64,000 nucleotides of DNA from Escherichia coli. Lineage in GTDB: Bacteria > Pseudomonadota > Gammaproteobacteria > Enterobacterales > Enterobacteriaceae. The number at the start of each line of letters is the position of its first letter. Position 1 is the first letter of the stretch. Below are positions 11,800 through 18,708 of this stretch, in pieces. The stretch lies in NCBI RefSeq assembly GCF_024223415.1, contig NZ_CP100501.1; one strand, 5' to 3'. Below the pieces are notes generated by a model, which saw only the letters and a list, made by a program, of their open reading frames with translations, had not been told where the DNA came from and did not search any database. Both the position numbers and the translations under genes were made by a program.

Positions 11800-11834
11800 A
11801 GGAGCCTGTTTAAGATTCTGTGTAAATGCCTTTC

Positions 11835-12053
11835 TCAGAAGTGACCGTCCAGGCGGTCACCGAACTCGATAATAAAGCGGCTCATTGCCATTCGCCAGTC
11901 CTTCAACGGCATCGTCCATTTCCGGGACGCAGACTGGATTGCCAGCCACACCACTTTTTTCACCGAGTCGTCTGTCGGGAACACTTTACGCTTTTTGATC
12001 GCATGGCGGATCACGCTGTTTAGCGACTCGATGGCATTCGTCGTATAGATCAC
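11835..12053 (-). pseudogene. IS256-family transposase, C-terminal fragment
   Basis: TNAIESLNSVIRHAIKKRKVFPTDDSV...WTMPLKDW motif. Confidence 0.7.
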
Positions 12054-12109
12054 TTTGAACCGCCCCGGAAATCCTGGAGACTAAACTTCCTGAGAAAGAT
12101 GTAAACAGG

Positions 12110-12436
12110 ATGACTAAAAATACTCGTTTTTCCCCCGAAGTCCGTCAACGGGCAGTTCGTATGGTTCTGGAAAGCCAGGGCGAATATGACTCACAATGGG
12201 CGGCAATTTGTTCCATTGCTCCAAAGATTGGCTGTACGCCAGAGACCCTGCGTGTCTGGGTTCGCCAGCATGAGCGGGATACCGGGGGCGGTGATGGTGG
12301 GCTCACCACCGCTGAACGTCAGCGTCTGAAAGAGCTGGAACGCGAAAATCGTGAACTGCGCCGCAGTAACGATATCCTTCGCCAGGCTTCCGCTTATTTT
12401 GCGAAGGCGGAGTTCGACCGCCTCTGGAAAAAATAA
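12110..12436 (+). CDS. IS3-family transposase OrfA (IS629-like)
   Basis: [41 protein letters not shown]. Confidence 0.85.
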
Positions 12437-12457
12437 TGCCACTGCTGGATAAGCTGC

Positions 12458-13303
12458 GTGAGCTGCAGTGAGCTGCATATTGCCCCGTCAACGTATTACC
12501 ACTGTCAGCAACAGCAGCATCATCCTGATAAACGCAGCGCCCGTGCGCAGCGTGATGACTGGCTGAAGAAAGAGATACAGCGCGTATACGATGAAAATCA
12601 CCAGGTGTACGGTGTGCGTAAAGTCTGGCGTCAGTTGTTACGGGAAGGTATCAGAGTGGCCAGATGCACTGTGACACGTCTTATGGCGGTTATGGGTTTT
12701 GCCGGTGTTCTCCGGGGTAAAAAGGTCCGCATTACCGTCAGCCGGAAAGCCGTTGCCGCAGGCGACCGCGTAAACCGTCATTTCGTGGCAGAACGTCCTG
12801 ACCAGCTGTGGGTGGCTGATTTTACTTACGTCAGCACATGGCAGGGCTTTGTTTATGTGGCGTTCATCATTGATGTGTTTGCCGGATACATCGTGGGATG
12901 GCGGGTCTCCTCGTCCATGGAAACGACATTCGTGCTGGATGCACTGGAGCAGGCGTTGTGGGCCCGTCGTCCATCTGGCACCATCCATCACAGCGATAAA
13001 GGCTCTCAGTATGTATCGCTGGCCTACACGCAGCGGCTTAAGGAAGTCGGATTACTGGCATCAACAGGGAGCACAGGCGACTCGTATGACAACGCGATGG
13101 CGGAGAGCATCAATGGTCTTTACAAGGCGGAGGTAATACACCGTAAGAGCTGGAAAAACCGGACAGAAGTGGAGCTGGCTACACTCACGTGGGTGGACTG
13201 GTATAACAATCGACGATTGCTGGAAAGGCTGGGCCATACTCCCCCGGCAGAAGCAGAAAAAGCTTATTATGCTTCCATCGGAAACAATGATCTGGCAGCC
13301 TGA
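12458..13303 (+). pseudogene. IS3-family transposase OrfB (IS629-like), N-terminal region out of frame
   Basis: Compared with copy 2, about 20 bp (tacggggtcggaccggtatg) are missing near the orfA/orfB junction, producing an in-frame stop after LREL. Confidence 0.7.
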
Positions 13304-13342
13304 GTTCACAGACAAAACATTCTCCAGGAAACCCGGGGCGGT

Positions 13343-13804
13343 TCAGTTTTGCCATTCTACAACCTGCTCCATCACGGCATCGGTAACCTTTGATATCAGT
13401 GCCGGTGAAACATCTGCGTCATACAGTTCTTTGAACGCAGCGGCTATCTCACGGGTGGTCATCCCTTTGGCATACAACGAGAGGATCTGGTTATCCATCC
13501 CGGTAATACGGGTCTGATTTTTCTTTACCAGTTGTGGTTCGAAGGTACCGTCACGATCGCGCGGAGTACGCAGTTCCAGTGGACCGTCGCCTGTGATAAC
13601 GGTCTTTGTGGAATAACCGTTGCGGGAGTTAGCTCCTGGTCTGGACTGATTTTTCTCATACCCAAGATGGTGTGTCATCTCTGCATTGAGAGCGGCTTCA
13701 ACGCTGAGCTTTTTCAGCAGCCGATCAAACTGACTGAGGTCTTCAGGGGTTTTGAGGTTTTTGGCCAGTTCGTTAGCCAGAGCCTGTAACTGTTTTTCGT
13801 CCAT
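13343..13804 (-). pseudogene. IS256-family transposase, N-terminal fragment
   Basis: MDEKQLQALANELAK...NGYSTKTVITGDGPLELRTPRDRDGTFEP...VEWQN. Confidence 0.7.
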
Positions 13805-15503: not shown

Positions 15504-15594
15504 CTGTTCTCCAATGACTAGTCTAAAAACTAGTATTAAGACTATCACTTATTTAAGTGATATTGGTTGTCTGGAGATTCAGGGGGCCAGTCTA

Positions 15595-17183
15595 AAGAGT
15601 AAGGAACTTACTGATTCATTTAATATTATTATCCATCAATAACTGAGCATACAAAAAAATAACAAAACTCTGACACAGATACAACCAGCTCTCTCTATAT
15701 CAGACTGACATTCTTCTCAAAAAGAGGCGTGTTCTGGAACACGGAACAGAAGCAATGAACATTGTAGACAGAAACACACTCTGTTTTTTACACGAGGATA
15801 TATGTCGGGAAAATCAGGCAGAAGAAATTAAAGGACTTTGTGCATACAAAGGGAAAGCGCGTTTCCGGTGCACCATATTAGATATTATCCCTGCTACAAA
15901 CACCAGAGACGCGCTCATAACTCTTCTAGCGTAAAATATCCTTTCAGGCAAGGAAAAGGTCGTGATACAGAATCACGACCTTAATTTTATCGAAAACACG
16001 GATTTTAGTATGCACATGACTGTACTCCTCAGGAGTACAGGGAAATCATAATCAGTAACAAAAACACCCGGCAACAAAAATTTAACGCGTTTACGCTATT
16101 TTTGTGACAAATATTGCAAATATGGAATCACTGTATTTTTACTGCAACAAAATCTGGTTGATCCACAGGCGGATCCGGGGTAAAAAATTATCCGGAATGT
16201 TTCTGCGTGGTGTGGTAAAACCTCTAGCCGGATTGCCTTTGCAGCAACGCAGGAACATTCCATCCTTTATCAGTACTCCTGACGCTGTAAAGACCTGGCT
16301 GATGCAGACAGGACTGCTGATATCGAATCAAAGCTTTCTCATTTTTTCGCGTACACAAAATAAAACAAATCAGGCAATTCCTTACACTCCCCCTCTAAAA
16401 TTGAGGGGTTTTTTTTTACCATATAAATTACTTGCACAGCTTTTAAAAAAATTGCAAATCTTTACTGTAGTGTCGGGCTTCATGTAGCTCAACAGGGCAT
16501 GGACTAAAAAGAAGTAAACCCATCTTTTATCTCCCTGATATGGGGGTCTTTGTGGCATAAAGAATTCCTTGAATTATTATTTTGATCATATCAACATGAA
16601 AAGAATAATACTCTGACTTTTGATTTCCAGTGCCAGATATAAAATCAAATTCACTGTAAATATCACATAATGATATCTGGCTGCCCCCAGTCACTTCCTG
16701 TATTCAGCCACACATATAAGCCCCCTGAATTTCCTTGTGGTTTTTATGTGATAAAAACCACAAGGAAACGATGGTTGAAATAATATTTAAAATGTGAAAG
16801 ATATCACCCGTAGAATTTTTCAATCCGACACTCCATAGAATGGACCTTTAAGATTTAATCCTCATCATGTATGAGGATTTTTTTTCTGGCAGACAAAAAT
16901 ATCTTTTCAGCAATCCCTGTTCAGTTCCGGTTCTGGTGACTCTGGAAGAGGTATTGTTACACGCTATAACCTGCCGGAATGACTCAGGTCCGTTCATCTC
17001 TGATACCATTAAAAGAAGCATTAAGCACATTCTGAGCGCCTCTTACAGAAGAAGCGGAACGCGTTCCTGGCTCCTGTTGCATAATCTTACTAACCCCATG
17101 GTTTTCTTGACTGCCAGAAACGCGCCCACAGTTTTTTTAGCCTGTCTCCGGTTCCTTGTCTAGAATACTGTTGATTTTTTGTT
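15595..17183. other. AT-rich non-coding orphan segment between IS2 and IS629-like copy 2
   Basis: No convincing ORF; contains terminator-like hairpins (ccccctctaaaattgagggg + T-run near 16390-16420; aatcctcatcatgtatgaggatt + T-run near 16857-16890) and a palindrome ttccttgtggttttt...aaaaaccacaaggaa near 16730-16770. Confidence 0.4.
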
Positions 17184-17225
17184 TGAACCGCCCCGGGTTT
17201 CCTGGAGAGTGTTTTATCTGTGAAC

Positions 17226-18116
17226 TCAGGCTGCCAGATCATCGTTTCCGATGGAAGCATAATAAGCTTTTTCTGCTTCTGCCGGTGGGATATGGCCCAG
17301 CCTTTCCAGCAATCGTCGATTGTTATACCAGTCCACCCACGTGAGTGTGGCCAGCTCCACTTCTGTCCGGTTTTTCCAGCTCTTACGGTGTATTACCTCC
17401 GCTTTGTAAAGGCCATTGATGCTCTCCGCCATCGCGTTGTCATACGAGTCACCAGTACTTCCTGTTGATGCCAGTAATCCGGCTTCCTTAAGCCGCTGTG
17501 TGTAGGCCAGCGATACATACTGAGAACCTTTATCACTGTGATGGACTGTGCCGGACGGTCGACGGGCCCATAACGCCTGCTCCAGAGCATCCAGCACGAA
17601 TGTCGTTTCCATGGACGATGAGACCCGCCACCCCACGATGTATCCGGCAAACACATCAATGATGAACGCCACATAGACGACCCCCTGCCATGTGCTGACG
17701 TAAGTAAAATCAGCCACCCACAACTGGTCAGGACGTTCTGCCACAAACTGACGGTTTACGCGGTCGCCTGCGGCAACGGCTTTCCGGCTGACGGTAGTGC
17801 GGACCTTTTTACCCCGGAGAACACCGGCAAGTCCCATAACCGCTATGAGGCGCGCCACTGTACATCTGGCTACCCTGATTCCTTCCCGTAACAACTGACG
17901 CCAGACTTTACGCACACCGTATACCTGATGATTCCCATCGTATACGCGCAGTATCTCTTTCTTCAGCCAGTCATCGCGCTGCGCACGGGCACTGCGTTTA
18001 TAAGGATGATGTCGCTGTTGCTGACAGTGGTAATACGTTGACGGGGCAATATGTAGTTCACTGCATACCGGTCCGACCCCGTACAGCTTACGCAGCTTAT
18101 CCAGCAGTGGCATCAC
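17226..18116 (-). CDS. IS3-family transposase OrfB (IS629-like)
   Basis: 296 aa [28 protein letters not shown]...; DDE integrase core. Confidence 0.85.
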
Positions 18117-18439
18117 TTTTTCCAGAGGCGGTCGAACTCCGCCTTCGCAAAATAAGCGGAAGCCTGGCGAAGGATATCGTTACTGCGGCGCAGTTCACGA
18201 TTTTCACGTTCCAGCTCTTTCAGACGCTGACGTTCAGCGGTGGTGAGCCCGCCATCACCGCCTCCGGTATCCCGCTCATGCTGGCGTACCCAGACACGCA
18301 GGGTCTCTGGCGTACAGCCAATCTTTGGAGCAATGGAACAAATTGCCGCCCACTGTGAGTCATATTCGCCCTGACTTTCCAGAACCATACGAATCGCCCT
18401 CTGACGGACTTCGGGGGAAAAACGAGTATTTTTAGTCAT
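18113..18439 (-). CDS. IS3-family transposase OrfA (IS629-like)
   Basis: 108 aa, one substitution relative to copy 1 (V to I). Confidence 0.85.
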
Positions 18440-18493
18440 TCTGTTTACCTCTTTCTCAGGGAGTTTAGTCTCCAGGATTCCCGGGGCGGTTCA

Positions 18494-18708
18494 GCGTGAT
18501 CCGCCATGCGATCAAAAAGCGTAAAGTGTTCCCGACAGACGACTCGGTGAAAAAAGTGGTGTGGCTGGCAATCCAGTCTGCGTCCCGGAAATGGACGATG
18601 CCGTTGAAGGACTGGCGAATGGCAATGAGCCGCTTTATTATCGAGTTCGGTGACCGCCTGGACGGTCACTTCTGAGAAAGGCATTTACACAGAATCTTAA
18701 ACAGGCTC
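18494..18708 (+). mobile_element. second IS256-family right-end fragment, inverted relative to 11802-12055
   Basis: Reverse complement of 11802-12017 but joined to the IS629-like copy about 40 bp further in. Confidence 0.55.

Follow-up and report, generated by a model that had tools for sequence, protein, structure and literature searches.

A probable IS1414-bounded insertion, since eroded and entered by two IS629-like elements and IS2, in an IncK2/Z plasmid of Escherichia coli

The window analyzed here, a 64,000-nucleotide stretch of DNA from E. coli, carries a dense cluster of insertion sequences in the intergenic region between pemK and trbC of an IncK2/Z conjugative plasmid. Does this cluster consist of unrelated insertions that happened to accumulate, or does it preserve the remains of one event? 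We consider it likely that one composite-transposon-like insertion, bounded by IS1414 and now decayed, gave rise to this region and was later entered by two IS629-like elements and IS2. Its features are as follows, where IS1414 positions are numbered from r1, the right-end base at 11802.

11794..11801: left 8-bp target-site duplication AAGTGAAG, overlapping the final codons and stop of pemK
11802-18708: the whole block, read as a single insertion of 6907 bp, whose termini are two outward-facing IS1414 right ends
11802..12055, minus strand: IS1414 (IS256 family) right-end fragment, r1-r254, with the transposase C-terminus; outer terminus toward pemK
12056..13345, plus strand: IS629-like copy 1 (type 1), 1290 bp, starting TGAACC and ending GGTTCA; orfA 12110-12436
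13346..13876, minus strand: IS1414 left part, r784-r1314, with the transposase N-terminus; left inverted repeat ends at 13876
13877..14263, minus strand: cargo segment c, with an 81-aa ORF (13891-14136) that PGAP calls a hypothetical protein
14264..15594, minus strand: IS2, 1331 bp, with AAGAG duplicated at 14259-14263 and 15595-15599
15595..17183, no strand assigned: cargo segment d, AT-rich (34-41% GC), with no recognisable gene
17184..18493, minus strand: IS629-like copy 2 (type 2), 1310 bp; orfA 18113-18439, orfB 17226-18116 in the -1 frame
18494..18708, plus strand: IS1414 right-end fragment, r215-r1; outer terminus toward trbC
18709..18716: right 8-bp target-site duplication AAGTGAAG

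The outer boundaries provide the evidence for a single insertion. The two copies of AAGTGAAG, at 11794-11801 and 18709-18716, directly abut both IS1414 termini, and the plasmids pRM10042-1 and pA16EC0070-1 carry an empty site with a single AAGTGAAG and without the insert (...ACTGAAGTGAAGCTAAGC...). Elements of the IS256 family generate target duplications of 8-9 bp at their termini. The reference for IS1414 was a 1314-bp copy in pE32-3, labeled IS1414 family by PGAP and bearing astA at 100% (AMRFinder). Specifically, the fragment at 11802..12055 is 100% identical to r1-r256 of this copy, the fragment at 13346..13876 is 99.4% identical to its positions 781-1314, and the right-end fragment beside trbC is 100% identical both to the astA-bearing element and to its counterpart beside pemK. 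A preliminary description of this DNA had rightly distinguished two separate IS256-family right-end fragments (r1-r254 and r215-r1) but had missed that they are the two termini of one insertion, with its 8-bp duplication and its empty sites.

This organization resembles that of Tn4001, an IS256-family composite transposon in which inverted IS256 copies surround the cargo and are flanked by an 8-bp duplication. As in elements of that type, the same IS, in two inverted copies with intact outer termini, lies on both sides of the cargo, one 8-bp direct duplication surrounds the unit, and relatives retain the empty site. Unlike in elements of that type, both bracketing copies are now internally deleted, one cut to 215 bp and the other missing 529 internal bp, no cargo gene is recognisable, and one site only is occupied. 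All records that carry the cargo at at least 99% identity place it between nikB/pemK and trbC in IncK2/Z-type plasmids, with no second target site among them, and no plasmid was found in which this cargo lies between two intact copies of IS1414. The case for movement as a unit is therefore made by the duplication and the empty sites. IS1414 belongs to the IS256 family and is the carrier of astA/EAST1 (McVeigh 2000, cited in PMC12585946), and its decay by deletion is reported to be common (PMC12585946). The fragments of the block match an astA-bearing copy at 99.4-100% identity, but the middle of the element (r255-r783), including astA, which occupies r414-527 in an intact copy, is absent from the block, leaving no EAST1 gene.

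What the two IS1414 copies would once have enclosed can be recognized from other plasmids. ColE1-like plasmids carry counterparts of segments c and d, about 80% identical, in one contiguous stretch; segment c is 81% identical to a region of pPK8275-8kb, where it adjoins segment d, and segment d matches, at about 79-80% identity, DNA that lacks annotation in ColE1-like colicin plasmids of 8.9 kb. The 81-aa ORF has no Pfam or NCBIfam family, and the three ORFs of segment d have no NCBIfam family. When 11000-19500 was compared with Rfam under a permissive E-value, the hits were confined to the ALIL pseudoknots of the two IS629-like copies and one spurious miRNA match, which falls on a 69-bp palindrome; no replication-control RNA was found in the AT-rich DNA. 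Promoter and terminator counts in the cargo only slightly exceed those of shuffled controls and are uninformative.

Members of the IS629/IS1203/IS3411 group of the IS3 family are about 1310 bp long, and their orfA and orfB are linked by a slippery site and an ALIL pseudoknot. Both IS629-like copies have the TG...CA ends of this group, and over 25 nt their terminal repeats are 88-92% complementary; copy 2 has the length of 1310 bp, from which copy 1 departs by a 20-bp deletion. Copy 2 also has the complete frameshifting apparatus, with a 108-aa orfA, a 296-aa orfB in the -1 frame, an A-AAA-AAG slippery site and the full ALIL pseudoknot (116 bits in Rfam), and so it appears intact; it is 99.4% identical to a pF11-3 copy that PGAP annotates with a programmed frameshift. 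The 20-bp deletion in copy 1 falls in the frameshift/pseudoknot region, truncates the pseudoknot (63.8 bits at 12391-12477) and leaves orfB sharing the reading frame of orfA, downstream of its stop codon, from which we infer that this copy is probably non-autonomous. Its equivalent in pGF60-A, which agrees with copy 1 at 94 of 95 diagnostic alignment columns, is called frameshifted by PGAP. By ISfinder convention, isoform status requires nucleotide identity of about 95% or more to a named IS. Compared with a single IS629/IS1203 copy from O157:H7 (PGAP label, IS1203 family), copy 1 shows 93.1% identity, counting its 20-bp gap, and copy 2 shows 94.6%; "IS629-like" is the safe name for both.

Between the two copies there are 75 substitutions, distributed along their full length, and the 20-bp indel, a divergence of 5.8%. 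The preliminary description had called them diverged rather than recently duplicated, which is correct, although its "several substitutions" understates the extent. This divergence also bears on the idea that one IS629 element, by intramolecular replicative transposition, produced an inverted second copy and inverted the intervening segment in a single step. Such an event would account for a segment bracketed by inverted copies, neither of which has a direct target duplication. However, the 75 differing sites and the indel effectively refute it, the inner flanks (GTT after copy 1 and GTT before copy 2 on the plus strand) are not reverse complements, and IS3-family elements transpose by copy-out/paste-in through a circle. 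We assign this route almost no probability.

If the copies are distinct isoforms, then how did each come to adjoin the same IS1414 sequence? As described previously, both are joined by their orfA ends to IS1414 right-end fragments at junctions roughly 40 bp apart, by our measurement 39 bp: ...GATCACTT|TGAACC at r254 for copy 1 and ...GGATCACGC|TGAACC at r215 for copy 2. Neither copy has matching 3-bp flanks, again as noted before (CTT and GTT for copy 1; CGC and AAC, in IS orientation, for copy 2). A 3-bp duplication is present in relatives, CGT in pEF5-18-41_2 and AGG in O157:H7, and in our reading its loss from the copies in the window reflects later rearrangement.

The simplest view, and that of the preliminary description, is that each copy inserted at a different position, so that r254 and r215 are the original sites of independent insertions into separate IS1414 copies. 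Since the copies are different isoforms, 5.8% diverged, they did arrive separately. Moreover, IS629-like elements occupy many other IS1414 positions in other replicons (r340, r621, r827 and r1025, the last with a clean CGT duplication), in both orientations, which leaves room for separate insertions near r215-r254. No orientation bias within IS1414 is evident (28 records in one direction, about half of them from the plasmid lineage of the window, against 10 in the other). Against original insertion at r254 and r215, neither copy has a 3-bp duplication or contiguous IS1414 sequence on its other side. The orfB-end junctions, GGCAAAAC|IS and TTTTTTGTT|IS, are constant in the window, pCh101, pEGY2 and pGF60-A, whereas the orfA-end junctions among sister plasmids lie at r254, r245, r219/220 or r215, or at backbone position 18726; four to five of them fall within 40 bp, in one orientation. 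Junction position also does not track the isoform, as r219/220 goes with type 1 and r245 with type 2, and no other complete E. coli genome has the r215 junction. Because sisters that share orfB-end junctions vary at the orfA end, the 39-bp difference probably does not mark separate insertion positions; this is the pattern of deletion after insertion, and erosion beside the IS end probably fits better than fresh insertions. Deletions adjacent to IS629, with sizes between a few nucleotides and upward of 40 kb, have been reported (PMC9943667) and resemble the erosion proposed here. We regard independent insertion at these two positions as unlikely.

Two more specific schemes were set aside. The 39-bp difference does not result from deletion between two GATCAC repeats of IS1414, as the bases that follow GATCAC differ (GC versus TT); a fit is given only by the TG that recurs at the IS end. 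Similarly, one ancestral insertion at r783/784 does not explain all IS1414::IS629 junctions, given those at r827 and r1025.

The preliminary description had also suggested that the segment between the inverted elements could invert. The inverted repeats are confirmed at 11802-12018/18492-18708 (100%), 12048-12465/18084-18501 (95%) and 12464-13345/17184-18065 (93%), and both orientations of the interior occur when public sister plasmids are compared with one another. pCh101 and pEGY2 have the same order as the window. In pCFSAN083829_2 the junctions of segment d with IS2 and with IS629 are those of the window, and segment d is opposite relative to pemK and trbC; its orfB-end deletion extends into IS2 at 15517. 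Chimeric elements accompany these rearrangements. The right IS629 copy of pCh101 has a type-2 tail on an otherwise type-1 element, both copies in pCFSAN083829_2 read type 1 through the fourteenth diagnostic site and type 2 thereafter, except at one later type-1 site, and pNDM_M25631H and pEF5-18-41_2 show a clean exchange of orfB-end IS629 flanks with reciprocal hybrid copies. Inversion by homologous recombination between inverted IS copies is a general phenomenon; here, inverted arms of about 1.5 kb, two orientations, chimeric elements and swapped flanks are found together in comparisons between plasmids in public records. Together, the chimeric copies and the two orientations indicate that the predicted inversion has happened.

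Both copies in the window are pure, unrecombined types at the diagnostic sites, and so derivation of its layout from that of pE32-3 by a simple crossover inside IS629 was rejected; the layout would need inversion through the IS1414 arms or another order of events. Separately, in pE32-3 the AT-rich segment is parted from IS629 by extra DNA, of which about 0.94 kb is not IS100 and has no long ORF.

Inverted repeats of about 1.5 kb can be mis-joined in short-read assemblies, and the r215 junction has no counterpart in other complete E. coli genomes, so a chimeric or mis-oriented contig must be considered. However, pGF60-A is 99.9% identical over 10000-18365 of the window, a span that runs from the left arm through the interior and takes in most of copy 2, and pCh101 and pEGY2 agree in order. 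Furthermore, a collapse would give identical arms rather than arms that are 6% different with different junctions. An artefact is very improbable, and comparison with the sisters indicates that the layout is not one, with an r215 junction that is private to the window.

IS2 was previously described as having an intact AAGAG duplication, which it does, and as being the most recent arrival. Its 1331 bp and 5-bp duplication identify it, and PGAP labels its pGF60-A equivalent only as an IS3 family transposase with programmed frameshift. IS2 is not the latest event, because pCh101 and pCFSAN083829_2 share the IS2/AT-rich junction of the window and differ in arm junctions and IS629 type, and pCFSAN083829_2 differs in orientation as well.

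Regarding the order of events, we propose that the original unit comprised two inverted IS1414 copies around a ColE1-like plasmid fragment, and that two different IS629-group isoforms, type 1 (now defective) and type 2, entered later. The target duplication of each would then have been lost by deletions starting at the IS end. On one side these may have taken out r255-r783 of IS1414; on the opposite side, what was left of the second IS1414 copy together with more of the cargo. Such deletions could also have cut the orfA-end junctions back to r254 and r215. IS2 presumably entered later, by a clean insertion. The inverted arms, each an IS1414 fragment plus an IS629-like copy, serve as substrates for homologous recombination, by which the 3.8-kb interior inverts and the arms exchange sequence.

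The orfA-end shrinkage proceeds in small steps (9, 34, 39 and >230 bp) and leaves the IS and its other junction in place. Microhomology of TG is seen at most joints; three of the five junctions sampled share this dinucleotide with the IS end. Conceivably, although we think it quite doubtful, plasmids of poultry E. coli could be subject to an active deletion process of the IEE/transposase type that is end-specific and microhomology-mediated. IS629-adjacent deletions and IEE-promoted events are known for this group in EHEC. If true, the IS1414 remnants would be a natural ruler for an end-specific deletion process.

A literature search found no description of this block in IncK2 plasmids. It is an ordinary accumulation of known insertion sequences and forms a passive mosaic for which no function is evident; genes for resistance or virulence are absent from it, astA having been deleted, and it raises no new biological question. 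Annotation would best record it as a single ancient IS1414-bounded insertion in an IncK2/Z backbone rather than as unrelated IS debris. Its inverted arms account for the inversion, the small junction deletions and the chimeric IS copies of sister plasmids, and both assemblers and plasmid-typing comparisons should expect to encounter either orientation.

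The window carries the backbone of an IncK2/Z-type conjugative plasmid, and the plasmids that match it best in public records are of the IncK2/Z type and come mostly from poultry E. coli. The IS256-family element in the window is IS1414, a full 1314-bp copy of which, with astA and labelled IS1414 family by PGAP, is present in plasmid pE32-3. Alignment to that copy places three IS1414 parts in the block at 11802-18708 (r numbers are IS1414 positions counted from its right end, r1 being window 11802); r255-r783, astA included, is absent. The features are as follows:

8436-11138, nikB-type relaxase, in the backbone before pemI/pemK
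to 11799, pemI/pemK, preceding the block
11802-12055, IS1414 r1-r254
12056-13345, plus strand, IS629-like copy 1 (1290 bp, read from the sequence)
13346-13876, IS1414 r784-r1314
14264-15594, IS2, with an AAGAG duplication
15595-17183, AT-rich DNA
17184-18493, minus strand, IS629-like copy 2 (1310 bp, read from the sequence)
18494-18708, IS1414 r215-r1
18963-21236, minus strand, trbC, beyond the block

The 8-mer AAGTGAAG lies directly outside both IS1414 termini (11794-11801 and 18709-18716), and plasmids pRM10042-1 and pA16EC0070-1, in which the insert is absent, carry one copy of it (...GAACATTTACTGAAGTGAAGCTAAGCACAC...). IS256-family elements generate an 8-bp target duplication. A duplication of this type argues that the 6907-bp block entered as a single unit between two outward-facing IS1414 right ends, in the fashion of a composite transposon. 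The preliminary description sought 3-bp duplications around the IS629-like copies and overlooked this one; its observation of the cluster is confirmed, and its interpretation is supported only in part.

Between the block and trbC lies a perfect 69-bp palindrome (18751-18819; 31-nt arms, 7-nt loop). The two empty-site plasmids lack it and have different DNA there; elsewhere it turns up, at 95-100% identity and in one to three copies per record, in numerous further IncI-type plasmids and plasmids of Klebsiella. A search of Rfam returned only a spurious miRNA match for this sequence, possibly a small palindromic mobile element. Elsewhere in the window, two 222-nt units, 73% identical, stand in tandem at 50305-50748 inside a 1343-aa ORF at 48519-52550.

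A repeat scan resolves the inverted arms of the block into three mutually collinear segments: 11802-12018 with 18492-18708 (217 nt, 100% identical), 12048-12465 with 18084-18501 (95%), and 12464-13345 with 17184-18065 (93%). Both IS629-like copies have TGAACC...GGTTCA ends and 25-nt terminal repeats, and the orfA end of each abuts IS256-family sequence, with TGAACC directly following ...GATCACTT in copy 1 and ...GGATCACGC in copy 2. These junctions, earlier estimated to lie about 40 bp apart, are separated by 39 bp within the same element, and a rereading of the sequence agrees that neither copy has matching 3-bp flanks. The copies had been said to differ by several substitutions; the difference is real, although its extent was far understated, because alignment yields 75 substitutions scattered over the length of the element plus a 20-bp indel. 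Against an O157:H7 IS629/IS1203 copy, both show ~94-95% identity. In copy 2, orfA is intact, orfB lies in the -1 frame, the A-AAA-AAG slippery site is present and the ALIL pseudoknot is complete (116 bits). In copy 1, 20 bp are gone from within the pseudoknot, leaving 63.8 bits, and this loss places orfB in the same frame as orfA, after the stop codon of orfA. The counterpart of copy 1 in pGF60-A is labelled 'frameshifted' by PGAP.

Roughly 15 plasmids contain the block. The nearest relative, pGF60-A, is 99.9% identical to window 10000-18365 and has ISCro1 (IS66 family; 8366-11064 of pGF60-A, L010) in place of 18366-18528. This insertion takes away the copy 2 orfA end and the r215 junction, and so the window looks ancestral to the pGF60-A state at this site. 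Plasmids pCh101 and pEGY2 share the window order, and the right-hand IS629 of pEGY2 meets the backbone directly at 18726, its IS1414 fragment lost. Three others (pE32-3, pEF5-18-41_2 and p135-2) have an essentially full IS1414 beside trbC, a single IS629 at the pemK side with the r254 junction of the window, additional DNA that includes IS100, and an ORF81/AT-rich interior (ORF81 being the 81-aa ORF) reversed relative to the backbone. An IS100-like remnant is also present at window 36943-37136 (194 bp that match the beginning of the pE32-3 IS100 copy at 99.5%). In pCFSAN083829_2 the IS2/AT-rich and AT-rich/IS629 junctions of the window are kept, the AT-rich DNA is flipped, and an IS629 orfB end is fused to IS2 at 15517.

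Among the plasmids with the window layout (pGF60-A, pCh101 and pEGY2), the orfB-end junctions are invariant, with GGCAAAAC or TTTTTTGTT directly adjoining the IS. The orfA-end junctions vary:

r254, window copy 1, the pE32-3 group and pGF60-A
r245, pEGY2 left
r219/220, both arms of pCh101 and both of pCFSAN083829_2
r215, window copy 2
backbone 18726, pEGY2 right

The r254 junction is present in 12 complete E. coli records, and a search of such records for the r215 junction found none. TG is common to the IS terminus and three of the five orfA-end junctions. Fixed far-end junctions, together with stepwise loss at one end, point to post-insertion deletions next to the IS rather than repeated fresh insertions. 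This erosion step is one that we infer, because IS629-like insertions do occur at other IS1414 positions (r1025, with a CGT duplication, r340, r621 and r827), in both orientations. IS629-adjacent deletions of a few nucleotides to >40 kb have been reported (PMC9943667).

Exchange between the arms was traced by typing every IS629 copy at the 95 alignment columns in which copies 1 and 2 of the window (types 1 and 2) differ, namely 75 substitutions and 20 indel columns. The right copy of pCh101 is type 1 with a type 2 tail; in pCFSAN083829_2, each of the two copies reads type 1 over the first 14 diagnostic sites and type 2 beyond them, save for one later type 1 site. In pEGY2, the uninterrupted right copy is type 2, and the left copy, split by ISEc52, is 99.6% identical to copy 2 where the two align. 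Relative to pEF5-18-41_2, pNDM_M25631H has its two orfB-end flanks exactly exchanged, and its copies are reciprocal type 1/type 2 hybrids: a textbook inversion, through homologous recombination of IS629 copies in inverted orientation. Across the plasmid family, therefore, the earlier proposal that the interior can invert holds. One of the copies of pEF5-18-41_2 and both of those of pNDM_M25631H have a group II intron (ltrA) at the same IS629 position (L007 13451-15713; L011, pNDM_M25631H, 2830-5092 and 12620-14882); in pNDM_M25631H it probably supplied the homology for the inversion crossover.

Both window copies are unrecombined types, which rules out derivation of the window layout from that of pE32-3 via a crossover inside IS629. 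The simplest alternative would be inversion through once-longer IS1414 arms, followed by deletions beside the orfB ends.

The AAGAG duplication of IS2 is intact, as first described, but IS2 is not the latest event: pCh101 and pCFSAN083829_2 have the same IS2/AT-rich junction and yet differ from the window in where the arms join, in IS629 type or in orientation, so there were later events. Relatives carry independent IS2 insertions 22 bp left (in pEGY2, where IS2 is reversed and flanked by a TTTTT duplication of its own) and ~68 bp right of the window site. IS2 in the pE32-3 group has no duplication and a few bp are lost there. Three independent insertions within ~95 bp of the same cargo DNA (window 14241-14264 and 15662; related plasmids L002, 7507-8837, and L003, 5876-7206) give this stretch the look of a local hot spot for IS2. 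A 335-bp IS2 end fragment at 40789-41123, 97% identical to the IS2 at 14264 and in direct orientation, forms with it a potential substrate for deletion of the intervening 26.5 kb.

The cargo itself (the AT-rich DNA and ORF81 region) resembles, at ~80% identity, a single unbroken and unannotated region of ColE1-like colicin plasmids of 8.9 kb, pPK8275-8kb among them, and searches of the cargo for RNA and protein families found neither. In pPK8275-8kb (L012, 8446-8862), a 231-bp piece that matches the opening 231 bp of copy 1 at 100% is inserted in the homologue of the 81-aa ORF, and so the defective type 1 element has met such DNA more than once.

A search of the accessible literature found no account of the block, every component and process in it is of a known kind, and no function is suggested. 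From sequence comparison, it is best read as a composite insertion bounded by IS1414 and now decayed, into which two isoforms of the IS629 group and IS2 have moved, and which was apparently reshaped by adjacent deletions, inversion and sequence exchange between its inverted arms.
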